A DNA stretch of 64,000 nt from an uncultured Clostridia bacterium (lineage in GTDB: Bacteria > Bacillota > Clostridia > TANB77 > CAG-508): positions 3,501 to 67,500 of the forward strand of contig CALXJU010000003.1 of assembly GCA_944388705.1 (NCBI GenBank), read 5' to 3'. Positions 15,046 to 64,000 of the stretch are shown here, in pieces. Made by a program: the position numbers and the translations under genes. The notes beneath the pieces were generated by a model that was not told the DNA's origin, searched no databases, and worked only from the letters and a program-made list of their open reading frames with translations. Positions within the stretch are counted from its first letter, which is position 1. Every line of letters starts with the position of its first letter.

Positions 15046-15060
15046 AAATATGATTAAAAA

Positions 15061-20257: not shown

Positions 20258-20295
20258 AAAATTATTAAAATTCCTCCAGATTGAACCAAGGGTGG

Positions 20296-20526: not shown

Positions 20527-20684
20527 TGTTATCAAGAAGATGAAAAATCAGTGTGTTCCATTTTGGAATATACTGCATCAGATAAATTGGAAAAATAGTC
20601 CAGATGGTTTAATATACAAATATGATGTGTCACTTGGTGAACTGTCTTTTTAATACTGCTTTATAATCAATAGTCATAAACTAA

Positions 20685-23305: not shown

Positions 23306-24109
23306 CTATTTTTTTCCAACTACTGCAAATCTTCCATCTTTAACATGATAAGAACAAGTAGATAAAGTAATTAATTGGTCTCCATATTTAGCAGTTGGAG
23401 CAATATCGTATAAAGATGCATTTTTTGCATTATTTATAAACTCATTATATTCTTGTTCTGTTTCAGCATTAACAAAAAAATAATACCTAAAAACATTTTT
23501 TTCTGATTGATAATATACTCTTGATTTAAAAACAGCGATAATTTCATATTCTGAATCATCATCAACAGTCGTAAAACGAATTCTAGGGTGTTGTTCATAA
23601 AAAGATTGATTAGAATATTTTAATAATTCTTGAAACATCGTACCATTATTTAAATTGTGACCATATATTAACAAATTACTACTTGGAATTTCCCAATTAT
23701 AATCTTTTGTTAAAAAAATTGAACCATTTTTAGATTTTTGTTTTTTATAATTATGCTTCATATAATATTCATTATCAGCACCTTGTAAAACCGGATAATT
23801 AATGCTAGTACCAGGTATTTCTAACCAGCCTACAATATCAGAATTTTGGCTTTTAAGTTCTTTTACTTTAAGCATTCTTTCTGTTTCTTGAGGTAGTGTT
23901 TCAACAGGAGTGTTTTCTGTGATTAAATCTGTTTGCTTTCTAGAAACATTATTTACAATCTTATCACTATCAATGTCATTTAATAAATTACTTTCCTCAA
24001 TAGCTTCTTTTTTTAATAAAAACGAATTTATGATATATATAATCGATAAAATAATTAATAAAACTAAAATAAAATATATTAAAATATAAATTTTTTTAGT
24101 TTTTTTCAT
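23306..24109 (-). CDS. srtB: Class B sortase
   Basis: N-terminal TM, LIYGHN, and LITLSTCSY (catalytic Cys, TLSTC signature). Confidence 0.8.
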   Translation of the reverse strand: MKKTKKIYILIYFILVLLIILSIIYIINSFLLKKEAIEESNLLNDIDSDKIVNNVSRKQTDLITENTPVETLPQETERMLKVKELKSQNSDIVGWLEIPGTSINYPVLQGADNEYYMKHNYKKQKSKNGSIFLTKDYNWEIPSSNLLIYGHNLNNGTMFQELLKYSNQSFYEQHPRIRFTTVDDDSEYEIIAVFKSRVYYQSEKNVFRYYFFVNAETEQEYNEFINNAKNASLYDIAPTAKYGDQLITLSTCSYHVKDGRFAVVGKK

Positions 24110-24151: not shown

Positions 24152-25276
24152 CTATCCTTTAATATTTTTCTTGTTAATAGTTGCAATTGCTATTACTGAG
24201 AATAATATAGTTAATACAGCGATTCCCAAATAATTTTGAACACCAGTTTTTGGAGTTTCATCTTTTACTCCATTATTTACTTCTGGTGTAGTTTCTGGTA
24301 TAGTTGTTTCAACTTTTGAAATTTTTGCATAAACAGTTGTATCAGCAGTTATAGGATTATTAAAATCAAAAGCATTAGCAAAATTTGCATCTGTATAGAA
24401 TCCATCAACAACTTGATTTTCTCCTAATTTAATATGAGTTTTTAATAAATCAGCAGTTATTTTTTCACCTGAATTTACTGTTATTTTATAAGTTACATCA
24501 TTAACAAAAATAGTAACAATTAATTGTTTTACATCTACATTTGGTGTAGCTTTATCAGGTATAGTTGTTTCTGAAATAACATTATTATTTTTATCAGTTA
24601 ATACTACTTTATTTCCTGATAAAACAACTTTATTTGTTGTATCAGGTGTATTTGTAATAGTAAAATCTGTTAAATGACCATTTTCAGCTGGACGAACTAC
24701 ATTTTCATTTGATTCAGTAGTTAATACCCCATTCATTACTAAAGTTGGATTATTTGTAGCTGAAGCACCTTTGTCAATTTCTATACCATTATTGGCTCCT
24801 GTGCCATTTTTTCCTAAATGTAATCTTTTTACTTCAACATTACCACCATTTGCAAGAACACCGCCATATTTAAATCCTGAAATTGAAACATTATCTAAAA
24901 TAACAGTTGCACCATCATAAGATTGTACACCATATTTTGGACCATTTTTCAATTGAATATTTTTTAATGTAAGTTTAGCTGCAGAAAATTGAGCTGTAAA
25001 CATTGTTTGATTTCCTGATGTAGATGTCCAATCTTTAGAACCAACTACATTATGACCATTACCATCAATTGTTAATTCTTTAGCTATTACAATTGGTTTT
25101 GTTACTGTAATATCATTTTGTAATGTTATTGTTGCTCCTGAGTCTGCACTTGAAATTACACTATTTAAAGATTCCTCATCATGAGCTGTTGTTGCAGCCT
25201 TACTATAATTTGGTAGCATAATTGCAAAAATAGCTGTTACTATAAAAAATAAAATGAATTTTATTGTTTTATTCAT
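24152..25276 (-). CDS. Cell-wall-anchored beta-helix surface protein (sortase substrate)
   Basis: Signal peptide, an N-cap SLNSVISSADSGATITLQNDITV..LTIDGNGH, and a C-terminal TPKTG sorting motif followed by a TM and KKNIKG. ATG at 25276 with a GGAGGTG RBS. Confidence 0.75.
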   Translation of the reverse strand: MNKTIKFILFFIVTAIFAIMLPNYSKAATTAHDEESLNSVISSADSGATITLQNDITVTKPIVIAKELTIDGNGHNVVGSKDWTSTSGNQTMFTAQFSAAKLTLKNIQLKNGPKYGVQSYDGATVILDNVSISGFKYGGVLANGGNVEVKRLHLGKNGTGANNGIEIDKGASATNNPTLVMNGVLTTESNENVVRPAENGHLTDFTITNTPDTTNKVVLSGNKVVLTDKNNNVISETTIPDKATPNVDVKQLIVTIFVNDVTYKITVNSGEKITADLLKTHIKLGENQVVDGFYTDANFANAFDFNNPITADTTVYAKISKVETTIPETTPEVNNGVKDETPKTGVQNYLGIAVLTILFSVIAIATINKKNIKG

Positions 25277-25465
25277 TTTTTTCACCTCCATCAAAAATTA
25301 TTGTCTCCTTTTTAATTTTAAATATTTACAAAAATCATTAAAAAAATTTTCCAAAAAATTTTTTGCAGAATATGAATAATATTGTAAATGATTGTGTTAA
25401 ATAAAATTTTTATATAAAAAAATAAAAATACAGAACAAAAAGTTATTTTTGCATATAAAAATAAC

Positions 25466-45150: not shown

Positions 45151-45335
45151 AAAAAGTAAAAATTTATTTGATATATTTTTTATTGATGATTTATAAAAAG
45201 TTTATATATTACTATTCCATGGTCAAAACATATTCTGGGTCTTCGTCGGGGGTCTTGACCTTATTTCATAGTAATATATAAACTTTTTTTAATATAATAA
45301 ATTTATAGAATATATCAAATAAATTTTTACTTTTT
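45151..45335. repeat. 185-bp long palindrome filling the convergent intergenic region
   Basis: Perfect arms of 27 bp (AAAAAGTAAAAATTTATTTGATATATT) and 22 bp (AAAAAGTTTATATATTACTAT), plus GGTCAA/TTGACC around a G+C-rich centre. Confidence 0.7.
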
Positions 45336-46222: not shown

Positions 46223-47212
46223 TTACACCTCCATCAATTTTTCCATAATTTGAATTGCATTAGTTGCAGCACCTTTTCTTAGATTGTCAGCTACAACCCA
46301 CAGATTAAGTCCATTTTTTATACTATAGTCTTTACGTATTCTACCAACAAAAACTTCATCATGCCCATTTGCAATTTCTGATGTTGGATAAACATTATTT
46401 TTTATATCATCTTTTACAATAATTCCAGGAGATTTTTCTAGAACTGAAACTACTTCATTAATTTCAAAAGTTTTTTCAAATTCAATATTAATTGATTCTC
46501 CATGACAATTTGCAACTGGTACACGAACCGCTGTTGCTGTAATTGGTAAATATGGATGACCTAGGATTTTTCTTGTTTCATTAATTAATTTCATTTCTTC
46601 TTTTGTATATCTGTTTATTAAAAATGAATCAATATGTGGTAAGCAATTATCATAAATGGGATGTGAGAATTTTAAAAGGGGTTTATCTTTAGAAACATTT
46701 TTTAAGTCTTCTAGTCCGAATTTTCCAGCACCAGATACTGCTTGATATGTTGAATAAACTATTCTTTTGATTTTAAATTTGTCGTCTAAGGGTTTTAAAA
46801 CTACAACTGCTTGGATTGTAGAACAATTTGGATTTGCAATAATTCCACTATGGTTTAATACATCTTGAAAATTTACTTCTGGAACTATTAGTGGTACATC
46901 TTCTTCCATTCTAAATGTACTACTATTATCTATTACGATGCAACCTTTTGAAACTGCTATTGGTGCAAAATGTCTTGAAGTTTCTCCACCAGCAGAAAAT
47001 ATTGCAAAATCAAAGCCTTCATCAAATGAATTATCTTTTAATTCCTGTGCTATATATTCTTTACCCAAAAAAGTTATTTTTTGACCTGCAGATTTTGAAG
47101 AACAAAACAATGTATATTCAATATTTGGAATATTTTTTTCTTCTAATACTTTTAGAGCTGTTCTACCTACTAATCCAGTAGCTCCTACAATTGCTAATTT
47201 ATATTTTTTCAT
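46223..47212 (-). CDS. asd: Aspartate-semialdehyde dehydrogenase
   Basis: LAIVGATGLVG and IIANPNCSTI (catalytic Cys). ATG at 47212 with a GGAGG RBS. Confidence 0.9.
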   Translation of the reverse strand: MKKYKLAIVGATGLVGRTALKVLEEKNIPNIEYTLFCSSKSAGQKITFLGKEYIAQELKDNSFDEGFDFAIFSAGGETSRHFAPIAVSKGCIVIDNSSTFRMEEDVPLIVPEVNFQDVLNHSGIIANPNCSTIQAVVVLKPLDDKFKIKRIVYSTYQAVSGAGKFGLEDLKNVSKDKPLLKFSHPIYDNCLPHIDSFLINRYTKEEMKLINETRKILGHPYLPITATAVRVPVANCHGESINIEFEKTFEINEVVSVLEKSPGIIVKDDIKNNVYPTSEIANGHDEVFVGRIRKDYSIKNGLNLWVVADNLRKGAATNAIQIMEKLMEV

Positions 47213-47303
47213 GTGAGCCTCCTTATATTTAAATATATTCAATTATATGAATTTATATTTGTTTTGGAGATTGTTTTGAATAAAAAATACTTAATGATTT
47301 TCC

Positions 47304-47472
47304 TTAATTAGATAAATTAACGATAGAAAAATTTTACCAAAAACTATAGTTGATTTTATTTAAATATAATATTTTACCAATTTATGCTTTTAAAATCTAT
47401 CAAAAAATTTTTAAATATCTTGATTTTATTACTATTTATTGATATATTCTAATCGTTAATTTATCTAATTAA
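47304..47472. promoter_or_regulatory. Candidate invertible promoter segment: 127 bp flanked by perfect 21-bp inverted repeats
   Basis: TTAATTAGATAAATTAACGAT (47304-47324) and its exact reverse complement (47452-47472). Inside is TTGATT-17-TATATT with a TG extension (47420-47448), facing the giant gene. Confidence 0.55.
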
Positions 47473-47567
47473 AGAAATAAGGTATTTACAAATATCTTAA
47501 AAAATTATATAATAAAAATGTAGCAAAATATAAAAATTACTTGTAAAAAGAAAACGGAGGAAGAAAA

Positions 47568-50500
47568 ATGGAGAAAAATAAAAAAATAAATAGAAAAAAT
47601 GAAAGAGGAGCAATAACATTATTTGTATTATTAGCATGCCTCTTTTTTGTGTTTATATTAACAGGAGTATATGTATATAATTTAAACAAAATGCAAACAC
47701 AGGAACAAAATATAAAACAAATACAAGAAAATTATGCAAGAGATATAAACAATATAGATGAAATATATAATGAGTTATCAAAAAGTATAAAACTTGAATT
47801 AACACAAGAGCCTGAAAATGGAATATGGAGCCAAGAAGTAACATTAATAGGAAATGCAGAAGTAAAAGAAGGAAAAATAGTAACAATAGAAGAATATGCA
47901 TTTAGTAAAGATAGCACAGATGAGACAATGTTAGAGTGGGAAATAGCAGATAATGGAGAAAGAATAACAGAAACAACAAAAGTAACAGAAGGAGGAACAT
48001 ATTATTTTTGGGTAAAAGATAGTGAAGGAGAAATATATCAGTCAAATCCAGTAGAAGTAACAAATATAGATAGAACAGAACCAACAGCAGGAAGCATAGT
48101 AGCAAAAGAAGAAAATGCAAGTGGAGAAGAATATGATTTAACAAAAAGTCCATGGACAGATAAAAGTGTTTATGTAGAAAAAGTAGATGGAACAGATGGA
48201 GAGTCAGGACATGGAGAGACAACATATACAGTAAAAAAAGATGGAATAACAATACATGAAAATATAAAAGACCCAGTAATATTGGAAGAAAGTGGAATAT
48301 ATCAAATAGTAGTAACAACAAAAGATAATGCAGGAAATGAAGCAACAAGTAAACCATATGAAATAAAAATAGATAAAGTAGTACCAGTATTAGCATTAAA
48401 ACATAATGATGCAAATGGAGAAGATTATGATGGAACATGGACAAAAGACGATTTATATGGAGAAGTAAATATAGATACAAGTAGTACAGGAAAAAGTGTA
48501 GAAAAATACCAATATTCATATAATGGAGTAATATGGAATGATATATCAAGTGAAATAGTACCAACAAGCATAGATTATACAACGACATTTCCAATGAATG
48601 AAGATAAACCAGAGTGGATAAATGGACCAATAAATAATGGGGATTATTATTTTGAAGTACAAGAAGACGGAACATTAAAACCAACAAATGGAGGAAGTAC
48701 AGGAAATGATAACAAAAATACAGTAGCAAATAGCTATTTTGAAATAGACTTAACAGATTATCCAGAAGCAGAATTACAGATAACAATAAATGCAACAATA
48801 TCAAGTGAAGGTGCAGATAGAGGATATGCAACAATAACAACAAGTGAAACGGCACCTTTATATAATTCAACAGATGGAAGATTTATATATGTATCAGGTT
48901 CAACAAAAACAGAAGACCATACAACAACATTAACAGGAGGGCAAAAATACTATTTACATATAGGATATAGAAAAGATGGCTCTGTTTCAAGTAATCAAGA
49001 TATGTTTATAATAAATAGTATAAGATTACAATCAGAAACATTGGGAAGTAATATAAATTTCACAGAATATAGAAAAGAAGGAAATAAGATAACATTTAAA
49101 TTACAAGAAGATGTAGAAGAAGAGATATATATAAGAGCAGTATATACAGATGGAACAACAAGTAAATATGGAGATAAAACAACAATAAAAATAGATAAAA
49201 CAGCACCAGTAATAGAAAATTTAAACATAGAAATAACATCAATAACAGAAGCAAAAGTAGACATAAAAGTAACAGAGGATGCTTCTGGAATGAGAGGATA
49301 TTATATAAGTACAGAGAATACAGAACCAACAGAAGAAAATAACTGGGTAGAACAAAGCTTAAAAGAATTTACAATAGAAGGATTAAATACAGATACAATA
49401 TATTATTTATGGTTGATAGATAATGTAGGAAATATATCAGAAAGACAAGAAGTGATAATTGAAAAAGTTAATTATCAAATAGATGGAAAAGAAATAGCAG
49501 TAACTTTACAAGAAGCAATAGAAAAAGCCTCAGATGGTTCAACAATAGAATTATTAAATGACTATACAGATACAAGTACAGCCACATTTAGTAAAAATAT
49601 AACATTTGATGTGCAAGGATATACATTAACAAGAGATAAAACAATAACAATAAATAGTGGAAAAGAAGTAGAAATAACAGGAACAGGAAAAATAACAAGT
49701 GAAGTAAATAATATAGATACAATAACAAATAATGGAACATTAACAATAAGTGATAGCCTAACAATAGAAAACATGTCAACATCAAGTAGTTATGCACCAA
49801 TATATACTAATAACAGTAATTCTATAACAAATATAAATGATAATGTACAAATAATAGGAAATTATAGAGGAATTTATAATAGTAACGGAACAGTAAATAT
49901 AAATGGAGGAAAAATAGAGGCAACATATGAAGGAAGTAGTGCATATGGAATATATAATTATAGTAGAACAACAGTTAAGACATATATAAATTCAGGAGAA
50001 ATAAAAGGATATTATGGAATATATAATGGAAGTTCATCAACACTAGAGATAACAGGAGGAAAAATAATAGGAACAGGAGCATATGGAGTATATGCATATG
50101 GAACGACGAATGTATATGGAGGAAGGATAGAGGGAAAAACATATGGAGTATATTCGAACAGTACAGATAAAGTAACAATAGGAAGAGAAGAGGACGAATT
50201 AAGTACAACACAACCAGCAATATATGGAGCAAATTATGGAATATATATGAGTAATACAACATATAGTTTTAATTTCTATAATGGAGTAATAATAAGTAAT
50301 ACAAGAAAAACAGCATATAGAGGACAAGTGAATTTAAGAACAGGACATATGACATATACATATATAGATTATGAAGTAGAACAGAAATATTGTACAGTAC
50401 TAACACCAACCGTAGGAAACATAGAAATGAAGGTAGAGCCAACAGAATATACCAACAAAAATGTAACAGTAACAATAACATATCCATATACACAAGGGAT

Positions 50501-53500
50501 AACAAGAGAATATAGCGAAGATGGGACAGAGTGGAAGCAAGCCGATGAATATGTACAAGAAGTAATTGTAGAAGAAAATAGAACAATATATGCAAGAACA
50601 ATCAATGAATCAGGAGTAATAATAGAAGAAAAGCAAATAGAAGTAACAAATATAGATAAAGAAAAACCAACAGTAGAAGTGACACCAAGTCAGACAAAAT
50701 ATACAGTAATAGAGACAAATGGAACAATAGATTTAAATATAACAATAAAAGCACAAGATAGTGGAGTAAGTGGACTAAATCAAATGCAATATGCATGGAT
50801 AGAAGAAGGGAAAACGCCAAGTTATATAGATTTTACAAATGAAATAACAATAAATAAAACAAAACTAAAATTAGGAACATATTATTTATATATAAATGTA
50901 ACAGATAAAGCAGGAAATAAAGCAGATATAGAACAAATAAGATATACAGTAGAATATCAAGAGCCAGTAGCACAAATAGGAGATACAAAGTATCTAACAA
51001 TACAAGAAGCGATAGAAGCATGTAGTAAAACAGCAGGAGAAACACAAACAACAATAGAAATATTAAAAAGTACAGATGAAGAATTTAGTACATATGAAGG
51101 ACAGAATATAATACTAGATTTAAAAGGAAATACAATAGGAAGTTCAAATTCAAACACACCAATATGTACAAATAATGGAACATTGCAAATAGTAGATACA
51201 AGTACAGAAAAAACAGGAAAACTAGAAAGTTTAAATGGAACAGCAATAGAAAATAAAGGAACATTGACAATAGGAGATAATGGTACAGAAATAGAAATGG
51301 AAGTTCCAACAATATATGGAAAACAAATAGGAATAAAAAATGAATACATATTAAATTTCTATGACGGAAAAATTCAAGGAACAGCACCAATCCAAGGAAA
51401 TGTAACAAATACACCTGCAGAATATGGACCAGTATCAACAAATTATGAAAATGGAATAACAACAATACAATTAGGAGTAGTAAGTGGATATGAAGCAAGA
51501 ATAGAATGGGTATATTATACAACAGTACAAGAAGCTATAGATGCAACTCAAATATATAAAGACGGTTATAAAGATACAGTAACAATAATAAAAAATATCC
51601 AATTAAATGAAATACTAGAAATAAATTCTATAAAAAATGTAATATTGGATTTGAATGGATATGAATTAACAGTTGTAGATGGAAATAATAGAGTAATAAA
51701 TAATTATGGAAATTTAGAAATTACAGATAGTAGTGTAGAAGAAACTGGAGTACTTACAATAACATCAACAAGTACTTGTTACGGAATTTATAACAATGAA
51801 AAAGGAAAAGTAATCGTTTCAAAAGGAGATATAAAAAGTACTTTTTATGGAATTTACAATAATAGTAGTGAAGATATAGAAATAAGAGGTGGAAATATAT
51901 ATTGTACAAGTACAAATTATGTTTATGGTATATATAATAATAATGGAGGAGATATAATAATAGAAGGAGGAAACATAAGTAATACTAATACTACTAATAA
52001 TAGTTCCTATGGAATTTATAATAGGTATGGAAATATATTTATAAATAAAGGAGAAATAACTAGTATTTCAGGAAGCAGTAATTATGGAATTTACAATGCA
52101 AATGATGGAAATGTGATAATAACAGATGGAATAGTACAAGCAGTATATTATGGTAATTCATCATCTTACAGTTATGGAATTTATAATGCTAAAAATGGCA
52201 ATATTATAGTTAAAGGTGGAGAGGTAACAAGTAGTACAAAGTATAGCTATTATGCAAGTAATGCTATTTACAATGAAAAAGATGGAAGTGTAATAATTGA
52301 AGGTGGTGTGTTGAATGCAAAAGGTGCTAATTCTGTTTTTGGAATTGTTAATAAAGGAAAATTAGAAATGAACGGTGGGGTTATAAAAGGTGGAGAGGCA
52401 ACATATGGTGGAAAAGGAATTCGCAACATAGATAATGGAATTGTGGAAATAAATGGAGGAGAAATATACGGAATAAGGAGTACATCAATTTATAATGAGG
52501 ATAGTGGAAAAATAATAATAAATGATGGTATTATAAGGTCAAGTGATATTAGATCTAGCTCTGCTTCTAATAGTAGTAGTGTTTATAATGCTAGTAATGG
52601 AGAAATAATTATAAGAGGTGGCGAATTTTACTGTGTCGGAGATGGTGCTACTGTATATGGAGTATATAACAATAGTGATGGAACTATAATTATAGGTAAT
52701 AAAGAAGATGGACAGTTATCAAATCAAACTCCAAATATTAAGGCTGAATATACCGGAACTTCCTCATCATATAATGGATATGGTGTATATAATTCAATTG
52801 GCATAATAGAGTTTTATGATGGAATAATACAAGGAAGCTCAAATGCATTATATGGTAATATAGGAAAAATAGAAGATGGGTGTAAATTGGAAGAAAAGGA
52901 AGTTGATGGAAATGATGCAATATATCTAGTTAATAATACTGAAAAAGAAAATATAGTTCAAGTAGATAATACAAAATATACAGCATTATCAGAAGCAATA
53001 GATAGTATAGGAGAAAATGAAGAAAAGAAAATAGTAGTATTAAAAGATTTTGAAATATCAGAACCAGTATTGTTTAATAAAAATATAATATTAGATTTAA
53101 ATGGAAAAAAGGTTACGAATAAATACTATAGAATAGAAAATATAAATAATTTAACTATAACTGATTCATCATTAGAGGAAAGCGGCTTAATTGAGACAAC
53201 GGTAAATCCGGCAATATTGAACTCAGAAAATAAAATAAATATATCTAGAGGAAATATAAATTGTTCTGACATTACTTATGGAATTTATAATAAATATGGA
53301 GATATAGAAATAACAGGAGGAAATATAACTTTTAATAATACTAGCTATGGAATATTTAATGCTAATAATGGAAATATAAAAATAATAAATGGAACGGTAG
53401 AATGTACAAGTACTTATGCTATATATAATAATGATGTCGGAAGTATAGAAGTAACAGGAGGAACAGTAAGCATTAAAAATAGAACTACCAGTGGCACTAC

Positions 53501-56423
53501 TTATGGAATTTATAATAGTAGTGGCGGAAATATAGAAATAAGAGGAGGAATGATAAATAGTAATAACGGTTATAGTTCTGATGGTTATGGAATTTATAAT
53601 AGTAGTGGAAATGTAAAAGTAACAGGAGGAACAATAAGTAGTAAGAGTAGCAGTAATAGTAGCAGTAGTAGGAGGAGTTGTGGAATTTATAATAATAATG
53701 GAAATATAGAAGTAACAGGAGGAACTTTAAGTAGTAGTAGTTCTAGAAATAATTATGGAATTTATAATTACAATACTGGAAATATAATAATAGGAATAAA
53801 AGGAGATGGAATAGTATTACAAGAAGAACCATACATATATGGGGAATACACAGGAACATCAAGTAGTTATGTAGGATATGGAATTTATAATACAAAAGGA
53901 AAATTATATTATTATGATGGAAAATTAGAAGGAAGTACAAAAGCAGTATATGATATTATAACAGAAAGAGAAGAAAATACGGAATTAAATTATAATGAAG
54001 ATGAAACAACCTTAACATTAAGTACAACTATAACAGATGTAGCTCAAATAGGAAATACTACTTATCCAACATTACAAGAAGCAATAGAAACAGTAGGAAC
54101 AGAACAAACAACAATAAAACTATTAAGAAACGTAACATATACGAGCCAAGATATAGAAATAATAATTTCAGGTGGTAAGAATATAATATTAGATTTAAAT
54201 GGATATAAGATAACATCAGCAATACCAGAGCAGGCTATAAAAAATGAAGGAATACTAGAAGTAATAGATACAAGCGAAGGACAAACAGGAATCATCACAA
54301 CAACAGAAGAAACAACAGTTAAAAATGTAGAAGGAGCAAAATTAAGTATATCAGGAGGAACCATAGAAAATAGAACAACACAAAGTATACACAACCAAGG
54401 TGAATTAATAATAGCCAAAGGTACAATAAATGGTAATATAAATGGAATTTATAATGATGGAAATGGAATAGTAAAAGTAACAGGAGGAACAGTAAGTAGT
54501 AGTTATAATTACGGAATCTATAATAACAATAATGGAAGTATAGAAGTGACGGACGGAACAGTAAAGGGTGCATACGGAATTTATAATAATGGTAATGGAA
54601 CAGTAAAAGTAAACGGCGGAATTATAGATAGTAATATTAATAGTGTTTATAGTTATGGGATTTATAATAACAATAATGGAAATGTAAGAGTGACCGGTGG
54701 AACAGTAAGTGGTAGATATGGAATTTATAACTATGATAACGGAACAATAGAAGTGACAGGGGGAACGGTAAGCAGTAATAGTAGGATTAGTGGAGGTAGC
54801 TATGGAATTTATAATTGCAGTACAGGAAATATAATAATAGGAATAAAAGGAGATGGACAAATATCACAAGAAGAACCATATATAAATGGAAGTTATACTA
54901 GTACATCGGATAGTTATATAAGCTATGGAATTTATAACAAGGAAGGAAATCTGTATTATTATGATGGAAAAATAGAAGGAAGTACAAGAGGAATATATGG
55001 TAATATAACTGAAATAGAAGAAAAAGCAGAATTATTAATATCTAGAGATTCAACAGAAGTAATACAATTAGAAGCAAAAGAAACAAATGTAGCAAAAGTA
55101 AATGGGACGGAATATGACTCAATACAAAAAGCAATACAAGCATGTGGACAAACAGAAAGTACAATAGAAATACTAAGAAATGCAGAACCTGGAGCAACAT
55201 TAATAATTGAAGAAGTGCAGAATATAACAATAAATTTAAATGGATATACATTTAATAACTATACAGAATTACAAAATAAAGGAATGCTAAAAATAGTAGA
55301 TAGTTCAGCAGAAAAAAATGGTAAAATCAAAAGTGAATATGGAATAGCTGTATTAAACTCAGGAACAATGACAGTAGAAAGTGGAGGAATATCAAATTCA
55401 GGATATGGAATACAAAATAATGGAACGCTAAATATAGAAGGAGGAAATATCACCAACAATACATATGGAATATATAATGATGGAACCGGAATAGTAACGA
55501 TAACAGGAGGAAATATAAATACAAACACATATGGAGTATATAATTATAGTGGGAAAGTTGATATTGAAACATCAGGAATAATCAATAATGACTATGGAAT
55601 CTATATTGCAGGAGGAACAACAAACATAAAAGAAGGAGCAGAAATACAGTCGAATGTTGGAATATATAATGCAAAGGGAAGATTAAACATAGGTGACACA
55701 GGCACAATGAATCCAGATAGTCCAATAATAACAGGAGAAACATATGGATTAGTAAATTTAGCAACAGGAACAACATATATGTATGATGGACAAGTAAAAG
55801 GAAAAGAAGGAGCAACACAAGGATATATAACATATGCAGAAAGTGGATATGCAGTATCAAATAAAGTAGAAGGAGAATATAGTATAGACTATTTAGTATT
55901 AGCTGGAACGGTAGAAACAGTAGCAGAAGTAAATGAAATAGCATTCTCTAATCTACAGTCAGCAATAAATAGTGTAATAGGAGAAGAAGCACAAACAGTA
56001 AAACTAACAAATGGAGTAATATTAAATTCAACATTACATATATCAGAAGGACAAAATATCATATTAGACATGAATGGAAAAACAATAAATTCAGATACAG
56101 ATATAACAATACAAAATGCAGGAAATTTAACAATAATAGACTCAAGTTTAAGTGGAGTAGGAAAAATCTCAAGTACAGTAGGAGTAGCAATAGAAAATAG
56201 TGGAACACTAACATTAGGGCAAGATGATGGAACAATAAGTCAAGACTTAATAACAATAGAAGGAAATACATATGGAATAATAAATAGTGGAACATTAAAC
56301 TTCTATGATGGAACAATGAATGGAGCATCAGCGATACAAGGAGTAATAACAGACAGACCAGAAGGATATGTAATAAGAATAACAACAGTAAATGGAAAAG
56401 AAAGATATTACTTATCAATATAA
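47568..56423 (+). CDS. Giant (2951-aa) secreted/membrane-anchored beta-helix-repeat adhesin-like protein
   Basis: GGAGG RBS. N-terminal TadE/G-like hydrophobic anchor (ERGAITLFVLLACLFFVFILTG). Ig-like modules are delimited by TNIDRTEPT/IDKVVPV/IDKTAPV/TNIDKEKPT. About 7 super-modules follow, each with a ..Y.T.QEAI.. cap, ILDLNG, and dozens of YGIYN-type turns. There is no C-terminal anchor. Confidence 0.85.
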   Translation: MEKNKKINRKNERGAITLFVLLACLFFVFILTGVYVYNLNKMQTQEQNIKQIQENYARDINNIDEIYNELSKSIKLELTQEPENGIWSQEVTLIGNAEVKEGKIVTIEEYAFSKDSTDETMLEWEIADNGERITETTKVTEGGTYYFWVKDSEGEIYQSNPVEVTNIDRTEPTAGSIVAKEENASGEEYDLTKSPWTDKSVYVEKVDGTDGESGHGETTYTVKKDGITIHENIKDPVILEESGIYQIVVTTKDNAGNEATSKPYEIKIDKVVPVLALKHNDANGEDYDGTWTKDDLYGEVNIDTSSTGKSVEKYQYSYNGVIWNDISSEIVPTSIDYTTTFPMNEDKPEWINGPINNGDYYFEVQEDGTLKPTNGGSTGNDNKNTVANSYFEIDLTDYPEAELQITINATISSEGADRGYATITTSETAPLYNSTDGRFIYVSGSTKTEDHTTTLTGGQKYYLHIGYRKDGSVSSNQDMFIINSIRLQSETLGSNINFTEYRKEGNKITFKLQEDVEEEIYIRAVYTDGTTSKYGDKTTIKIDKTAPVIENLNIEITSITEAKVDIKVTEDASGMRGYYISTENTEPTEENNWVEQSLKEFTIEGLNTDTIYYLWLIDNVGNISERQEVIIEKVNYQIDGKEIAVTLQEAIEKASDGSTIELLNDYTDTSTATFSKNITFDVQGYTLTRDKTITINSGKEVEITGTGKITSEVNNIDTITNNGTLTISDSLTIENMSTSSSYAPIYTNNSNSITNINDNVQIIGNYRGIYNSNGTVNINGGKIEATYEGSSAYGIYNYSRTTVKTYINSGEIKGYYGIYNGSSSTLEITGGKIIGTGAYGVYAYGTTNVYGGRIEGKTYGVYSNSTDKVTIGREEDELSTTQPAIYGANYGIYMSNTTYSFNFYNGVIISNTRKTAYRGQVNLRTGHMTYTYIDYEVEQKYCTVLTPTVGNIEMKVEPTEYTNKNVTVTITYPYTQGITREYSEDGTEWKQADEYVQEVIVEENRTIYARTINESGVIIEEKQIEVTNIDKEKPTVEVTPSQTKYTVIETNGTIDLNITIKAQDSGVSGLNQMQYAWIEEGKTPSYIDFTNEITINKTKLKLGTYYLYINVTDKAGNKADIEQIRYTVEYQEPVAQIGDTKYLTIQEAIEACSKTAGETQTTIEILKSTDEEFSTYEGQNIILDLKGNTIGSSNSNTPICTNNGTLQIVDTSTEKTGKLESLNGTAIENKGTLTIGDNGTEIEMEVPTIYGKQIGIKNEYILNFYDGKIQGTAPIQGNVTNTPAEYGPVSTNYENGITTIQLGVVSGYEARIEWVYYTTVQEAIDATQIYKDGYKDTVTIIKNIQLNEILEINSIKNVILDLNGYELTVVDGNNRVINNYGNLEITDSSVEETGVLTITSTSTCYGIYNNEKGKVIVSKGDIKSTFYGIYNNSSEDIEIRGGNIYCTSTNYVYGIYNNNGGDIIIEGGNISNTNTTNNSSYGIYNRYGNIFINKGEITSISGSSNYGIYNANDGNVIITDGIVQAVYYGNSSSYSYGIYNAKNGNIIVKGGEVTSSTKYSYYASNAIYNEKDGSVIIEGGVLNAKGANSVFGIVNKGKLEMNGGVIKGGEATYGGKGIRNIDNGIVEINGGEIYGIRSTSIYNEDSGKIIINDGIIRSSDIRSSSASNSSSVYNASNGEIIIRGGEFYCVGDGATVYGVYNNSDGTIIIGNKEDGQLSNQTPNIKAEYTGTSSSYNGYGVYNSIGIIEFYDGIIQGSSNALYGNIGKIEDGCKLEEKEVDGNDAIYLVNNTEKENIVQVDNTKYTALSEAIDSIGENEEKKIVVLKDFEISEPVLFNKNIILDLNGKKVTNKYYRIENINNLTITDSSLEESGLIETTVNPAILNSENKINISRGNINCSDITYGIYNKYGDIEITGGNITFNNTSYGIFNANNGNIKIINGTVECTSTYAIYNNDVGSIEVTGGTVSIKNRTTSGTTYGIYNSSGGNIEIRGGMINSNNGYSSDGYGIYNSSGNVKVTGGTISSKSSSNSSSSRRSCGIYNNNGNIEVTGGTLSSSSSRNNYGIYNYNTGNIIIGIKGDGIVLQEEPYIYGEYTGTSSSYVGYGIYNTKGKLYYYDGKLEGSTKAVYDIITEREENTELNYNEDETTLTLSTTITDVAQIGNTTYPTLQEAIETVGTEQTTIKLLRNVTYTSQDIEIIISGGKNIILDLNGYKITSAIPEQAIKNEGILEVIDTSEGQTGIITTTEETTVKNVEGAKLSISGGTIENRTTQSIHNQGELIIAKGTINGNINGIYNDGNGIVKVTGGTVSSSYNYGIYNNNNGSIEVTDGTVKGAYGIYNNGNGTVKVNGGIIDSNINSVYSYGIYNNNNGNVRVTGGTVSGRYGIYNYDNGTIEVTGGTVSSNSRISGGSYGIYNCSTGNIIIGIKGDGQISQEEPYINGSYTSTSDSYISYGIYNKEGNLYYYDGKIEGSTRGIYGNITEIEEKAELLISRDSTEVIQLEAKETNVAKVNGTEYDSIQKAIQACGQTESTIEILRNAEPGATLIIEEVQNITINLNGYTFNNYTELQNKGMLKIVDSSAEKNGKIKSEYGIAVLNSGTMTVESGGISNSGYGIQNNGTLNIEGGNITNNTYGIYNDGTGIVTITGGNINTNTYGVYNYSGKVDIETSGIINNDYGIYIAGGTTNIKEGAEIQSNVGIYNAKGRLNIGDTGTMNPDSPIITGETYGLVNLATGTTYMYDGQVKGKEGATQGYITYAESGYAVSNKVEGEYSIDYLVLAGTVETVAEVNEIAFSNLQSAINSVIGEEAQTVKLTNGVILNSTLHISEGQNIILDMNGKTINSDTDITIQNAGNLTIIDSSLSGVGKISSTVGVAIENSGTLTLGQDDGTISQDLITIEGNTYGIINSGTLNFYDGTMNGASAIQGVITDRPEGYVIRITTVNGKERYYLSI

Positions 56424-56448: not shown

Positions 56449-56484
56449 AAGACACTTTGTAAGAATAATTTTACAGAGTGTCTT
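56449..56484 (+). terminator. Hairpin after the giant gene
   Basis: AAGACACTTTGTAA-N8-TTACAGAGTGTCTT (14 bp, one G-T pair). The T-run is weak. Confidence 0.45.
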
Positions 56485-56641
56485 AAAATTTAGAAGAAAT
56501 AATAGAAATAACATTTTTTAAAATCAAAAAATTAGGAAACTCAACCTAAAAATTCATTATTAAAAATAATATAAAAATATTGAAAAAAATAAAATAATAT
56601 AGTAAAATGAGACTGTTAAAATAAAAAGGAAGGGAAAACAA

Positions 56642-58147
56642 ATGGAAAAATTAAAAGAAAAAATCAAAAAAATAACATTAAAACAATGGCATATTGCACT
56701 AATAATATTTGGAATAATATTTGTAGGACTAGGGGCATTCCATAGAAATCTATGGTTTGATGAAGCGTATTCAGTAGGAATGGCAAGACAAAGTTTTGCA
56801 GACATATGGACAATAGGGGGACATGATGTACATCCAGTATTATATTATTGGATATTACATATAATATATCTAATAACAGGAGGTTCAATAGTAGCGTATA
56901 GATTAGCATCAGTAGTACCAATAGCAATAGTAATAATATTAGGATATACACATATAAGAAAAGATTTTGGAGAAAAAGTTGGATTTATATTTACATTTTT
57001 AGCAATATTTTTACCAGAAATGGCAACATATGCAATAGAAATAAGAATGTATGGCTGGGCAATGTTAACAGTAACATTACTTGCAATATATGCATGGAGA
57101 CTTGCAAAAGAAGATAATACAAAAAATTGGATAATATTTGGAATATCAAGTATAGCAAGTATATTTTTACACTATTATGGATTAATGGCAGCAGGACTAA
57201 TAAATGTAGTATTATTAATACATTTAATAAGAAACAAAAGAAAAAAAGGTTTAATATTTATAATATCATTTGGAGTAGTACAAGCAATTGCATATTTACC
57301 ATGGTTAGTATATCTTTCAACACAAATTAGTCATGTATCAGCAGGATTTTGGATAGGATTTGATTTTCCAAAAACTTTAATGGAATTAACAAGTTCACAA
57401 TTATCAGGATATATAAGAACAACAGAAGTCTCAGAATTATTAGTACCAACAGTACTAGCATTTGAGTTATATGGATATATAATTTATAAAACATATAAAT
57501 TCCATAAAGAAAAACAAGATTTAAAACCATTTAAATGGGCAGTAATAATGTATTTTGCAGTAATAGTTGCAGCATTAGTAATTACAATAATATTAAGACA
57601 ATCAATTTTATATTATAGATACTTATTTATATTAACAGGATTATACATATTTGCAATAAGCTTTATATTATCAAAAGAAAAAAGCAAAGTAGCAGTTGTA
57701 TCAATATTATCAGTTATAGCAATACTAGGAGTATTCTATAATTCTTGGATGGTAATAGATAATTATAGTAGTTCAAATGAAGAAGTTCTAAAATATATAG
57801 AAGAAAATATCAAACCAGAAGATACAGTAGTATATAGTGATTGCGGAGTAGGTTCAGTTGCAGCAAATCATTGCCTAGAAAGTCAAGTATACTTCTATAA
57901 TGGAGATGATTGGGGAGTACAAGAAGCTTATAAAGCATTTGGACCAAATTACGAAACAGTCGTAACAGAAGATTTTAAAGATAAGATATCATCTAAGAGA
58001 ATTTGGGTTATAGATAATGCTTGGGGTTCAGCAGCTGATGATATGTTTGGAGATGAAACAAAATATAAAAAGATTAGTGAAGAAAAATTTTATACAGATT
58101 ACCATGATTATGGTTGGGGAATAACTTTAATAGAACAATTACCATAG
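56642..58147 (+). CDS. GT-C fold glycosyltransferase (family 39, ArnT/PMT-like)
   Basis: About 11 TM segments, an LWFDEAYS acidic motif in the first loop, and a soluble C-terminal domain. Confidence 0.75.
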   Translation: MEKLKEKIKKITLKQWHIALIIFGIIFVGLGAFHRNLWFDEAYSVGMARQSFADIWTIGGHDVHPVLYYWILHIIYLITGGSIVAYRLASVVPIAIVIILGYTHIRKDFGEKVGFIFTFLAIFLPEMATYAIEIRMYGWAMLTVTLLAIYAWRLAKEDNTKNWIIFGISSIASIFLHYYGLMAAGLINVVLLIHLIRNKRKKGLIFIISFGVVQAIAYLPWLVYLSTQISHVSAGFWIGFDFPKTLMELTSSQLSGYIRTTEVSELLVPTVLAFELYGYIIYKTYKFHKEKQDLKPFKWAVIMYFAVIVAALVITIILRQSILYYRYLFILTGLYIFAISFILSKEKSKVAVVSILSVIAILGVFYNSWMVIDNYSSSNEEVLKYIEENIKPEDTVVYSDCGVGSVAANHCLESQVYFYNGDDWGVQEAYKAFGPNYETVVTEDFKDKISSKRIWVIDNAWGSAADDMFGDETKYKKISEEKFYTDYHDYGWGITLIEQLP

Positions 58148-59607: not shown

Positions 59608-59682
59608 GGCCCGTTGGTCAAGCGGCTAAGACGCCACCCTCTCAAGGTGGAATCATGGGTTCGATTCCCGTACGGGTCACCA
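59608..59682 (+). tRNA. tRNA-Glu (anticodon CUC), CCA encoded
   Basis: Acceptor GGCCCGT/ACGGGTC. Anticodon stem CCACC/GGTGG with loop CTCTCAA. T-arm ATGGG-TTCGATT-CCCGT. 3' ACCA. TTGACG-17-TATATA promoter about 20 nt upstream. Confidence 0.9.
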
Positions 59683-59771
59683 TATCTGTATAATATTAGA
59701 GTATCAATACTTCCAGAGAAAAAGATTGATATTCTATTTTTATATTTAACACACTTTTAACACTTTAGTTT

Positions 59772-60878
59772 TTATAAAAGCTTATTTAATTTATTTACAG
59801 CTTCTGTTTTTGTTTTAGGCAAAACATGTAAATATATTTGTGTTATGGTTATATCAGAATGGCCCATTAAATCTTGTACGGTTTTTAAATCTATACCTTT
59901 AGTTAAAAGCATAGTTGCATAGGTATGTCTTAACGCGTGAAATTTTCTGTATTTAATATTGTTACTATTTAAAGCCTTTTTCCAATTTCCAAATAAGGTT
60001 TTGGAAGAAATAGGTTGTCCATTTTCGCTAAAAACAAATTCAGATTCTTTTTTCATATTAGACAATATAGATATTAGTTTGTCAGGCAAATCAACTTTGC
60101 GTATTGAATTTTTTGTTTTAGGAGTAGAATATATTGTTTGTAAAGTTTTATTTTCATTACTGTCAAAAACATAAATTTTCTTCACACTTTCTTTTACTTC
60201 CAAATATTTTTTGTCTAAATGTACATTTTTCCATTTTAAGGCTAAAATTTCTCCCTGTCTTAATCCAGTTCCTAAAGCAAACAGTATTAAATTTTCAAAT
60301 TTGTGTCCTTTGAATGCCTTTTTTAATTGTTTTATTTCTTTTTCGTTAAAATATTCAATATCTGATTTTATATTATTAATTTTTTTATTCGGAATTGTTA
60401 TATTGTTACAAGGATTTTTTAATATAAATCCTTCACGTTCTGCATAAGAGAAAAATTGTTTCAATAGTTTATTTAATTTTTGTATTTGTGAATAAGTTTT
60501 ATTTTTTCCTAACTTATTATAATATTCTTGAATATGTAAAGATTTTGTATTATAAACTTTTAAATATGCTATATCAGAATTTTTAATATAGTTTCTGTAA
60601 ACTCCTTCATACGATAGAAAAGAAGATGGTTTTACTTCATTAATTTTTACCTGAAATAACCATTTATGAATAAGCATATCAATTGTAACTGTTTCAAAAT
60701 CTAAAGACATTCCACTATTTAATTTATTTATATAATCATCAGCTTTTTTTATTGCATCCTTTTTGCCATTTCCATAAAATGGTTTTCTAATAGGTTTACC
60801 ATCTGCCATATGTCCTATTGTTTTTGTAATTCGATAATATTTTTTACCATTTATTTCACAATTATATTCTATGGCCAT
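59772..60878 (-). CDS. int: Tyrosine recombinase (phage integrase)
   Basis: C-terminal ...[30 protein letters not shown] (R..H-x-x-R..Y catalytic pattern). ATG at 60878 with a GGAGGT RBS. Confidence 0.9.
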
Positions 60879-61028
60879 AAAAAATACCTCCATTTTTTAA
60901 TAATTTATTTTTAATAAACTATTGAAAATGAAAGCAAATTCTTGTATAATAAAAATACAATCACTTTCAATAGTGTTTATGAATGAGAAATATGTACCGT
61001 GTCGCAAACGTTGTAACATATTTCTCTT

Positions 61029-61241
61029 TTATTTTATCTCTTTATTGTTATAGGCATTATCAATATCATAGTAAAACATTCCAAGTCCATATATTACTAT
61101 AATAAATGTAAATAATCCGTTAAATGAACCAGAAATCCCTATTGACATTAACAAACTACTAATCCCTGTAACACCAAAAATCAATATATAAAAAATAATT
61201 ATTACATATAAAATTTGACTTATTAATTTTATTATTTTCAT
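61029..61241 (-). CDS. 70-aa two-TM membrane protein downstream of the repressor
   Basis: It abuts the repressor stop. Two hydrophobic helices. Confidence 0.4.
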   Translation of the reverse strand: MKIIKLISQILYVIIIFYILIFGVTGISSLLMSIGISGSFNGLFTFIIVIYGLGMFYYDIDNAYNNKEIK

Positions 61242-61865
61242 TTAAAACTCCCTCTTTAATTGTTTTACTACACCAACAATAGTAACAGGTATAGTTTTCA
61301 TTTCATCGTAAGTAAATATAAGTGGTTCATAGCTACTATTCAATGGTTGTAATAATATTCCAACTTCACTTTTTTTCCCTTTCTTAATTGTTGCTTCATC
61401 ACCATTTATGATTGCAACTACTATATCTCCATTTTCGAAATCTTCTTGTTTCTTTATTATAACAATATCATCTTCAACAAGAACAGGGGACATACTATCG
61501 CCATGTACTTTTAAAGCAATAAAATCTTTTCCATCTCCAACTAAAGAAGTTTCAACATCAACTGTTCCTATCCAATTTTCTTGAGCCAGATAATTATATC
61601 CAGCCTTAACCGTACCAAGAATAGGAATAGATACAACAGGATTACCAAATTTATCAGTTTTAGGTTCGTCTAAACACATTAGATAAGATGGAGTTACACC
61701 AAATAAATTAGATAGTATTTCAATTGATGAACGTTTCATATTTTTAACATTACCTTTTTCATATTTCATAATAGCTGCTTTTTTCACACCAATATATTTA
61801 CCTAATTCTTCTTGGGTAAGGCCTTTTTCCAATCGAAGTTGTTTTATTCTATCTCCCATATTCAT
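61242..61865 (-). CDS. CI/LexA-like repressor (XRE HTH + S24 peptidase)
   Basis: IKQLRLEKGLTQEELGKYIGVKKAAIMKYEKG (HTH) and VHGDSMSP...ATIKK (Ser/Lys dyad). ATG at 61865 with a GGAGG RBS. Confidence 0.85.
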   Translation of the reverse strand: MNMGDRIKQLRLEKGLTQEELGKYIGVKKAAIMKYEKGNVKNMKRSSIEILSNLFGVTPSYLMCLDEPKTDKFGNPVVSIPILGTVKAGYNYLAQENWIGTVDVETSLVGDGKDFIALKVHGDSMSPVLVEDDIVIIKKQEDFENGDIVVAIINGDEATIKKGKKSEVGILLQPLNSSYEPLIFTYDEMKTIPVTIVGVVKQLKREF

Positions 61866-61883
61866 AAGATTAACCTCCTCAAA

Positions 61884-62020
61884 GTATCTTAATTTTATCA
61901 TATTAATACAGATATTGCAAGGTTTTTACGATAAAGTATCTTAAAAATTTAATTTTTTTTCAAAAATATATTGACAAGAATAAAAAAATGATATACTATA
62001 CTTGTATCTTAAAAAGATAC
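61884..62020. promoter_or_regulatory. Lysogeny switch region: repeated GTATCTTAA operator half-sites and a rightward promoter
   Basis: GTATCTTAA at 61884, 61936 and 62004. The perfect palindrome GTATCTTAAAAAGATAC is at 62004-62020. TTGACA (61971) precedes TGATATACT. Confidence 0.55.
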
Positions 62021-62042
62021 AAAAAAGAAAAGAGGTGTATTT

Positions 62043-62306
62043 ATGAATACTGTTTTATTGAGATCTAAGATGGTTCTGCATGGAGACAATAATTCAACAT
62101 TAGGACAATTTTTAGGCTTATCATATCAAACAACTTCGGCAAAAATAAACAATACAAATGGAGCAGAGTTTACTCAGGGAGAAATTTTAAAAATAAAAAA
62201 GAGATATAATTTAACTGCTGAGGAAGTAGATGAAATTTTTTTTAATCTAGAAGTATCTCAAAAAGATACAAAACAAAGCGACACGGTACAAATAGAAAGG
62301 AGATGA
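62043..62306 (+). CDS. Cro/XRE-like small regulator
   Basis: It is divergent from the repressor. STLGQFLGLSYQTTSAKING...FTQGEI pattern. GAGGTG RBS. Confidence 0.5.
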   Translation: MNTVLLRSKMVLHGDNNSTLGQFLGLSYQTTSAKINNTNGAEFTQGEILKIKKRYNLTAEEVDEIFFNLEVSQKDTKQSDTVQIERR

Positions 62307-62310
62307 GAAT

Positions 62311-62553
62311 ATGCCAATACCTAAATATGTTTCTGCTGAAGAATATAGTAGAAGAAGTGGAATAGGTTCAGAAGAAGTAAAAAGACTTTGTAAGACAGGA
62401 CAATTAAAACACTATATGACAGAAGGAGGATATTACAAAATAGCAGTTGACGATGATTCTGTTCCAAAAGAAATATATGAAGAAGAAAAACAAAGAAGAA
62501 TAGAGGCGGAAACAAAAATAAATTTATTAACAAAAATTTTAGTGGGAGGATAA
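62311..62553 (+). CDS. Excisionase/MerR-type HTH DNA-binding protein
   Basis: YVSAEEYSRRSGIGSEEVKRLCKTGQLKHYMTEGGYYKI. Confidence 0.55.
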   Translation: MPIPKYVSAEEYSRRSGIGSEEVKRLCKTGQLKHYMTEGGYYKIAVDDDSVPKEIYEEEKQRRIEAETKINLLTKILVGG

Positions 62554-62554
62554 A

Positions 62555-62734
62555 ATGAAAACATTATTATTAGAAATAATATTTACAATTATAGGACTAG
62601 CATTCTTATTTGGAATGATATGGCTAGTAGAATTTCTAGCAAGTGTTATTAACGTTAATACTTTTATGCACATATTAACAAATATAGCTTATATAGTAGG
62701 AGTATTAAGTTTTATATATTTAATAAAAAATTAG
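62555..62734 (+). CDS. 59-aa hydrophobic phage ORF
   Basis: GGGAGGA RBS. Two TM-like segments. Confidence 0.4.
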   Translation: MKTLLLEIIFTIIGLAFLFGMIWLVEFLASVINVNTFMHILTNIAYIVGVLSFIYLIKN

Positions 62735-62750
62735 AAAGGAGGGAAAGAAA

Positions 62751-62924
62751 ATGGAAGAAAAAAAGCTTTTATTAGATGAATTAAAAAGACTAAATAGAAG
62801 AAATGATTTATTAGAAAAAGAAATAAATACAAGTACAGAAAATAAGGTTGATTCAGAAGAAAGAATTATAAAAAATGCATTAGCTATGTGTGAGATAGCT
62901 AACACATTAAAAAGATTTTGCTAA
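62751..62924 (+). CDS. 57-aa coiled-coil phage ORF
   Basis: AGGAGGG RBS. Product MEEKKLLLDELKRLNRRNDLLEKEI... Confidence 0.4.
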   Translation: MEEKKLLLDELKRLNRRNDLLEKEINTSTENKVDSEERIIKNALAMCEIANTLKRFC

Positions 62925-63116
62925 ACATCAGGATTTATTACAGCATCATATATTTTCTTATATGCTTCTGTAACATTTTCTGTAGATGTTAACATTTTTG
63001 AGTTAATCATAGCAATAACTATGTTTGAAACGATTTCAGAATAATTCAAATTAATCACCTCGCTTTCGAGGTAATTATATGACAATTTACAAAATTTTAC
63101 AAGAAAGGAGACAAAA

Positions 63117-63377
63117 ATGCAGGACTTATTAATATTAATGTACATAATTGTATTAATGCTTTTATTTGTTGCTATATACAATGCAATTAAAGTAGAAGAA
63201 ACAAAAAGAAATTTAATAGAAGAACAATTTAAACTAACAGAAGAATGTTCTAAATTAAATAAATGCTTAACAGATAAAATAATACAAATAAATTTAATAT
63301 TATATTTAGATAAAAATGGTACAGAAAAAATAAAACAAATAGAAAAAGTTATCCATTCTAGCGACCAACTACCATAG
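63117..63377 (+). CDS. 86-aa phage ORF with an N-terminal TM
   Basis: AAAGGAG lies 7 nt upstream of the ATG. I prefer it to the overlapping 159-aa minus-strand ORF. Confidence 0.45.
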   Translation: MQDLLILMYIIVLMLLFVAIYNAIKVEETKRNLIEEQFKLTEECSKLNKCLTDKIIQINLILYLDKNGTEKIKQIEKVIHSSDQLP

Positions 63378-63463
63378 ATAACTTTAAATAAAAAATACAT
63401 AAATATATGATTTTCTAATTAATTTTACCACAAAAACATTAGAAAATCAAGGGAAAAGAGAAA

Positions 63464-63904
63464 ATGAAATGTATTAATTTTAGAATAAGGACAAGGAATT
63501 ACGAAAAATATCTTTATTGTACTAAAAGAGGTAAAGAAATTGAGTTTAAAGATTGCAGTAATTGTAAATATAAAGAATTTAAACCAATAAAAGAGTTAAA
63601 AAAGAAATCTAATAAATTAAAAAAAATAGAAGCAAAAAGATTTAGCATAATAACAGATAATTTAAAGGTTTGCTATGTATGTAAAAAAAAGAAAAAAGAC
63701 GATTTAAATGAAATATTTGAAGGCAGTAACAGGCAAATGAGCATGAAATATGGACTAGTTATACCTATTTGCAGACAATGCCATATAGAATACGATTTAA
63801 ACAAAGAATTAAGACAGAAATACCAAAGAGAAGCACAAAAGAAATTTGAAGAAAAATATGGACACGATTTATTTATGCAAGAGTTTAAGAAAAACTATTT
63901 ATAG
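63464..63904 (+). CDS. Cys-rich phage protein (zinc-ribbon, possible NinG/nuclease-like), function uncertain
   Basis: CxxC pairs (CSNC, CYVC, CRQC) and an ..NEIFEGSNRQMSMKYGLVIPICRQCH.. block seen in phage early regions. Confidence 0.35.
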   Translation: MKCINFRIRTRNYEKYLYCTKRGKEIEFKDCSNCKYKEFKPIKELKKKSNKLKKIEAKRFSIITDNLKVCYVCKKKKKDDLNEIFEGSNRQMSMKYGLVIPICRQCHIEYDLNKELRQKYQREAQKKFEEKYGHDLFMQEFKKNYL

Positions 63905-63921
63905 AATGGAGGATTTAAAAA

Positions 63922-64000
63922 ATGAGAATGAGTGCAGTAGCAAAACATAAAAACTTTATGCCAAAAGAAAATAGTAAAAACCAACAAGAAAAGAGAAAGA
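63922..64000 (+). CDS. 5' end of a phage ORF running off the window
   Basis: GGAGG RBS before the ATG at 63922. The frame is open to the window end. Confidence 0.3.
   Translation, partial: MRMSAVAKHKNFMPKENSKNQQEKRK

Follow-up and report, generated by a model that had tools for sequence, protein, structure and literature searches.

A probable invertible-promoter switch upstream of a giant surface protein gene in uncultured gut Clostridia

A probable flip switch between asd and a giant gene

A 127-bp intergenic segment, located between asd and a divergent gene coding for a giant surface-type protein, is found in opposite orientations in independent assemblies of otherwise nearly identical strains; very probably it works as a genuine flip switch, of a kind already familiar but encountered here in a new lineage. 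We consider it likely that this segment is an invertible-promoter switch (inverton), flipped by a site-specific recombinase whose gene lies in another part of the genome. The locus had been singled out in an earlier note on the window, i.e., the whole stretch of 64,000 nucleotides analysed here. Its main features are the following:

46223-47212, minus strand: asd, the divergent neighbour (Pfam match), followed by dapA; outside the conserved context of the switch
47300-47324, plus strand: putative left recombination site, asd-proximal, TTCC-TTAATTAGATAAATTAA-CGAT, containing the perfect 21-bp arm; part of the 14-arm consensus
47325-47451, no strand: invertible segment of 127 bp, reverse-complemented in strain L004 between identical flanks
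47420-47448, plus strand: P1, putative invertible promoter, with -35 TTGATT (47420-47425), a 17-nt spacer and an extended -10 TGaTATATT (47440-47448)
47452-47476, minus strand: putative right recombination site, gene-proximal, an inverted copy of the left site
47485-47513, plus strand: P2, putative fixed promoter, TTTACA-17-TATAAT (11/12 consensus matches), outside the repeats
47568-56423, plus strand: the gene presumed to be regulated; its 2951-aa product combines a membrane anchor at the N-terminus with Ig-like domains and a tandem series of seven right-handed beta-helix-like modules
56642-58147, plus strand: PMT_2-type glycosyltransferase, syntenic downstream, with a hairpin (56450-56483) and a promoter-like site (56580-56608) ahead of it

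The inverted repeats and the inversion between strains

The earlier note described perfect 21-bp inverted repeats around a 127-bp spacer, and they are exact: TTAATTAGATAAATTAACGAT at 47304-47324 and its reverse complement at 47452-47472. Outward of these arms, a single mismatch is followed by four more matching bases, which extends the repeat to 26 bp with one mismatch; 95 nt separate the right arm from the ATG of the giant gene (47568). As the G+C content of the 64-kb window is only 25.9%, a chance test was needed for such a repeat. We used 200 second-order Markov shuffles of the window and allowed spacers of 20-440 bp: the longest perfect inverted repeat measured 12-19 bp in the shuffled windows, and 21 bp was reached in none of the 200, so that the repeat is longer than chance would provide.

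An exact look-up of the Asd protein led to four assemblies, which made a comparison between closely related strains possible. L003 is identical to the window and L005 carries the segment in the same orientation, whereas in L004 (ENA ERZ2916212, an independent assembly) the segment is reverse-complemented and the flanks are unchanged. Once 47325-47451 is flipped in silico, L004 differs from the window by four SNPs only across 47000-47567 (one in asd, two in the segment and one in the right arm), and the asd DNA of the two is 99.9% identical. The inversion foreseen in the earlier note is thus borne out as an exact flip of 47325-47451, and both orientations occur in nature between unchanged flanks, in L004 versus the window, L003 and L005 as well as across the lineages described below. 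Two of the three Logan contigs covering such loci (L006 and L109) stop at the inner edge of an arm, and for L006 the break coincides exactly with the inner limit of the 17-bp core; this is what is expected if the assembly graph branches at the arms.

Terminal inverted repeats around a short, A+T-rich, non-coding segment could also be those of a miniature transposable element (MITE), and an apparent inversion could be an assembly artefact. We regard both as hardly credible. The arm has no other copy in the window at up to four mismatches, and the exact 21-mer in species-representative genomes, like the arm with a C/T variant at position 18 in JGI metagenome contigs, gave chance single matches only. 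A scan for paired arms returned a single other match, in one MAG (L094) and at the homologous locus, and the 24-position site consensus matched nothing in viral contigs. Neither dispersed copies nor a target-site duplication, the two marks of a MITE, were seen (the flanks are CC and AG), and the position relative to the giant gene is constant. Regarding an artefact, three different assemblies and assemblers agree on the structure of the locus. A 21-bp repeat is also shorter than the k-mers usually employed for final contigs.

Architecture of the arms

We then aligned 14 arms from eight loci, from outer to inner end, and obtained the consensus TTC-n-TTAATT-AGATA-AATTAA-n-GA(T/A). TC at -3/-2, TTAATTA, AATTAA and GA are invariant in the 14 arms, a degree of conservation that fits a recognition site. 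Each arm consists of two inverted half-sites of about 10 bp (TTCnTTAATT and AATTAAnGAA) placed around an asymmetric centre, AGATA. Whenever the centre changes, it does so in both arms of one locus (G>A in L101, AGAATC in L100), as expected if strand exchange needs identical centres. An apparent reversal of site polarity in L100 was not retained: it rests on three central bases, in a site whose flanks are symmetric, and is not robust.

The layout of dif and lox sites is the core-site architecture of tyrosine recombinases. The arms share with them two inverted half-sites of about 10-11 bp and a short asymmetric centre identical in partner sites, but their centre is only 5-7 bp long, and the enzyme is here only putative. 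The arms are therefore best described as quasi-palindromic, dif/lox-like sites, presumably of a tyrosine recombinase; the class of enzyme is read from their layout, and they may alternatively be hix-like sites of a serine invertase. The true crossover point is within the arms.

Quasi-palindromes of the form TTAATT-N5-AATTAA are also the type of sequence bound by dimeric regulators, and the two arms stand about 148 bp apart, one on each side of a promoter. The arms could accordingly be operators of a dimeric DNA-binding regulator controlling P1 by repression or looping, with inversion being incidental. This seems to us highly improbable, since it leaves unexplained both the presence of the two orientations in near-identical strains and across lineages and the identity of the central bases of both arms in every locus. 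The inverted-repeat core itself was found neither in the searchable literature nor in the supplements of one inverton catalogue, and no Rfam family was found in the switch region.

Promoters inside and outside the segment

The sequence TTGATT-17-TATATT with a TG extension, noticed earlier at 47420-47448, is present inside the segment and faces the giant gene in the window. Promoter-like hexamers are frequent in DNA with 26% G+C (27 found versus 18.4 expected), which counts against the reading as a promoter switch. When the segments of six lineages are aligned in a common orientation, conservation inside them is confined to the P1 block, with a mean pairwise column identity of 0.77-0.85 in the arms and 0.70-0.86 in the 35-nt P1 block (TTGATT-17-TGnTATATT), versus 0.2-0.55 in the segment outside this block. 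The putative promoter P1 is, in other words, the conserved cargo of the switch. It is directed toward the giant gene in four lineages (the window with L003 and L005, L107, L094, and L102) and away from it in three (L004, L100, and L101).

On the opposite strand, the two motifs pointed out in the earlier note as extended -10 elements do exist (ATTTTACCA at 47331 and 47371), but a promoter role for them is not supported: TGGTAAAAT is conserved in no other lineage, the sibling L107 included, and we rejected these motifs as a second, oppositely directed promoter. A minus-strand TTCAAA-17-TATAAA, proposed as the promoter of asd, is also there and lies between asd and the left arm.

The strongest promoter match in the intergenic region as a whole had been overlooked so far. 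This match, P2, lies about 12 nt beyond the gene-proximal arm and, judging by its hexamers, is a near-consensus sigma-A-type promoter. It is conserved in the window, L094, L101, L102, L104, and L107, with an invariant -10 (TATAAT) and a -35 that reads TTTACA, TTGAAA, or TTGCAA across these six lineages. The decayed locus L098 has lost it by deletion, and L100 and L108 do not have it; in these last two, only 20-42 nt separate the arm from the ribosome-binding site. In most lineages, the giant gene thus probably keeps a promoter in either orientation of the switch. P1 and P2 are presumed to be active promoters, and any ranking of their strengths is presumed as well.

A family of switches that follows the giant gene

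Further members of the family were found through homologues of the N-terminus of the giant protein and their surrounding DNA. In at least five other lineages (L094, L100, L101, L102, and L107), a pair of sites sharing the 17-bp core occurs directly upstream of the homologous giant gene, and the spacers in the further paired-site loci are 145-153 bp long. Elsewhere in the 855 kb of fetched loci, no paired sites were found. The upstream neighbour of the switch varies: asd is present in L107, but its place is taken by gerA in L094, by pyrG in L100, or by other genes. Conversely, the asd loci examined in 80 related species showed no homologous switch upstream of asd, so that the switch goes along with the giant gene and not with asd. 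Judging by Asd homologues, the window belongs to a lineage of uncultured gut Clostridia MAGs; among species representatives, the best (such as Clostridium sp. 28_12, CAG:354, and Ca. Scatovivens) reach 82-83% identity at most. The more distant N-terminal homologues, L105 and L106, carry no switch.

Some strains have one arm only, namely L098 and L099, as well as L104, where one arm is accompanied by P2; in L108 and L109 the second arm is missing or lies past the contig end (L109, a Logan contig, begins at the arm). In L098 (2243-3000) and L099, the synteny of asd and dapA is that of the window, and an insertion with a 172-aa ORF has taken the place of both the left arm and the segment; P2 has lost its -10, and only 466 aa of coding capacity are left to the giant gene. 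This locus is a decayed or locked version of the switch locus. In L100, G+C-rich direct repeats (GGGAC.GTCCTTG.C.CGGACTTT) are found upstream of the switch, at 2600-2700, in a locus that is otherwise A+T-rich.

A second inversion polymorphism nearby

A nested hairpin is located at 45151-45335, 2 kb from the switch, between a CmpB-like gene and dapA, which converge on it. It is built from two pairs of repeats:

45151-45177 and 45309-45335: outer repeats, perfect over 27 bp, enclosing 131 bp
45195-45215 and 45268-45288: inner repeats, perfect over 21 bp, nested in the 131-bp interior

The interior also holds a 52-nt core richer in G+C. With their A- and T-tracts, the inner repeats fold in the manner of a bidirectional terminator (z-scores of -7.6 and -8.9). 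The inner 94-bp module is 87% identical to positions 3721-3812 of L017, from another species. The outer arms of related nested-repeat elements are unrelated in sequence between species. The 131-bp interior is reverse-complemented in L004 and L098, with identical flanks. Inversions between inverted repeats can thus occur in this region without an obvious switch function or recombinase site.

This second case keeps alive a different explanation for the giant-gene switch, namely a non-programmed polymorphism: rare homologous recombination, or template-switching during replication, between repeats of 21-26 bp would leave an orientation fixed per strain, with no dedicated invertase and no phase variation. 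Besides the inversion of the terminator-like element with its 27-bp repeats in two strains, the lack of an invertase among the genes of the window speaks for it. We nevertheless hold it to be unlikely. Such a process requires only that one arm match the other, and the outer arms of the hairpin-type elements indeed differ completely between species, whereas the arm sequence of the giant-gene switch is conserved across lineages although the interiors have diverged to 20-55% column identity. Moreover, every arm shows an internal dyad symmetry like that of a recombinase core site, and what the segment carries is a conserved promoter. Strains with 99.9% identity in asd differ in orientation, and Logan contigs break at the arms. 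The giant-gene switch is set apart from 45151-45335 by the conservation of its sites, their dyad architecture, and its conserved promoter cargo; with both arms and P1 conserved across lineages, it does not belong with the non-programmed inversions of the hairpin type.

How the switch would act

For the invertible-promoter switch, the following course can be proposed. The arms would be complete core recombination sites in inverted orientation, and strand exchange within them would flip the 127-bp segment, P1 along with it. With P1 toward the giant gene, as in the window, transcription would start from about 47455 and be added to the output of P2; with the segment flipped, P1 would fire away from the giant gene and P2 alone would be left. 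The population would be split into cells with a high and cells with a low (or no) level of the giant beta-helix surface protein. Flipping would be enzyme-catalysed and reversible within one population.

The proposal of the earlier note that the switch gates the giant gene stands as far as the tie to this gene, and not to asd, is concerned; strict ON/OFF gating is doubtful. A conserved fixed P2 outside the switch, between it and the gene, makes high/low control likelier than strict ON/OFF, and the scheme that we favour, from the distribution of P2, is high/low control in lineages with P2 and ON/OFF control in lineages without it. That note had also deemed the ON orientation impossible to decide from sequence. 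We differ on this point: the likely high-expression orientation can be deduced, and would be the one with P1 facing the giant gene, as in the window.

The giant protein

Sequence searches of the giant protein against PDB, Pfam, and NCBIfam returned almost nothing, apart from weak Ig-like (Big_13) signals. Its N-terminal membrane anchor, RGAITLFVLLACLFF, is highly conserved among homologues. The anchor motif (residues 1-45; 47568-47700), (K/R)GAITLFVLLACLFFVFILTGVY...QTQEQ.IKQIQENYA, is kept in otherwise divergent homologues (P0001-P0023) and has no match in Pfam; we take it to resemble the N-terminal segments of pilin/PilX-type proteins. The protein also contains seven tandem modules, each opening with 'Y.TLQEAI'. 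One module was modelled and came out as all-beta (pLDDT 89, pTM 0.90), and every one of its best PDB matches is a right-handed parallel beta-helix (AlgE4, phage tailspikes, pertactin, and the L. reuteri SRRP adhesin), these matches being weak, with every E-value above 0.01. A putative surface or adhesin-like protein is a reasonable inference from these features. Between L004 and the window, the giant protein is 93% identical over 881 residues (47568-50212); such rapid evolution in comparison with its flanks is what an exposed, variable surface protein would be expected to show.

Comparison with known switches and significance

The switch of E. coli fimS and the promoter invertons of gut Bacteroidales listed in PhaseFinder catalogues resemble the present one in having a promoter within a repeat-flanked segment before surface-structure genes, and an inverted-repeat motif common to a switch family across related species. 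They differ from it in that their invertase is usually adjacent or well defined (FimB/E, Mpi, cluster 3b tyrosine invertases) and that a conserved fixed promoter downstream is usually lacking. The cwpV and flgB switches of Clostridioides difficile are placed after the promoter, in the 5' UTR, and act post-initiation (cwpV by a terminator, flgB through Rho; PMC7446863, PMC8844915); the switch described here is located upstream of the fixed P2 and carries its own P1, and is thus not a 5'-UTR switch of this kind. Those RecV-dependent switches are nonetheless of a similar size class (154 bp for flgB), with flanking inverted repeats, control of surface structures, and a tyrosine recombinase whose gene is not at the switch (PMC7446863).

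The nearest published counterpart is the cmr switch of C. difficile (Cdi6, upstream of cmrRST, RecV): it carries an internal promoter when ON, and another one, P4, weak alone in reporters, is located between it and the gene (PMC8844915). Both systems belong to the class Clostridia and combine a short intergenic invertible segment with inverted repeats, a non-adjacent recombinase, an orientation-dependent promoter for the downstream gene, and an extra promoter between switch and gene (PMC8844915), the last three being putative in the giant-gene switch. The organism and the inverted-repeat sequence are different, however; no c-di-GMP riboswitch or upstream promoter is evident here, the target is a giant surface protein and not a signalling operon, and as fixed promoter there is a sigma-A site close to consensus that six lineages have kept.

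Good documentation of invertons exists for Bacteroidales and some few cultured Firmicutes. For uncultured gut Clostridia, a large part of the MAG catalogue, there is very little, and Clostridia-like genomes are reported to have few invertons, with a median of 3 per genome (PMC11892184). The giant-gene switch is not a new principle. The analysis supplies a switch family defined by sequence, in which the recombination site can be recognised, the cargo promoter is conserved, and natural variants exist both ways. Such a family offers a handle for measuring the phase variation of giant surface proteins directly in metagenomes, for searching the cognate invertase by phylogenetic profiling, and for asking whether a fixed promoter downstream turns ON/OFF into graded control.

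A broader scheme can be put forward as a speculation, to which we give a small chance of being right as a whole. In this clade of uncultured low-G+C gut Clostridia, one unlinked "master" invertase, acting on a shared dif-like site, would flip an auxiliary promoter placed before a conserved constitutive one, so that fast-diverging giant membrane-anchored beta-helix surface proteins would be under two-level (rheostat) and not ON/OFF control. The same genomes would perhaps also flip the bidirectional terminator module at 45151-45335, i.e., an invertible terminator, a class that, to our knowledge, has not been described so far.

Neighbouring genes and recombinase candidates

The earlier note extended the control of the switch to the downstream glycosyltransferase, and here we do not follow it. 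A hairpin and a separate promoter-like site stand ahead of this gene, and in L098 an opposite-strand gene lies between it and the gene upstream; for these three reasons, co-regulation is unsupported, and the glycosyltransferase probably has its own promoter.

A distantly encoded recombinase, as assumed in the earlier note, fits the window, where none adjoins the switch: no recombinase was found within 12 kb of it, the nearest being more than 12 kb away. No RecV-like gene was found in the window either, and the host is not C. difficile. The only tyrosine recombinase of the window is an integrase encoded on the minus strand at 59772-60893, within what appears as the end of a prophage or integrative element (59608-64000), together with:

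59608-59682: tRNA-Glu, beside the tyrosine integrase
61242-61901, minus strand: CI/LexA-like S24 repressor, near the integrase
62311-62553: Cox-like excisionase, near the integrase

Because of these three neighbours, we considered it a typical prophage integrase and rejected it as the invertase of the switch. Two serine recombinases are encoded at 18688-22235, 25 kb from the switch; both are large and of the integrase type. They are convergent (a plus-strand one of 410 aa and a minus-strand one of 516 aa) and are followed by a sortase (23306-24109) and then by a List_Bact_rpt-like protein (24152-25294), a region that is possibly a small mobile or excisable element. Finally, at 14924-15047, between a Fic-domain gene and a Spo0A_C-domain gene, several copies of TTTAAAAATGTGAAACA or of its 13-nt core are found in both orientations, in what looks like an operator array.
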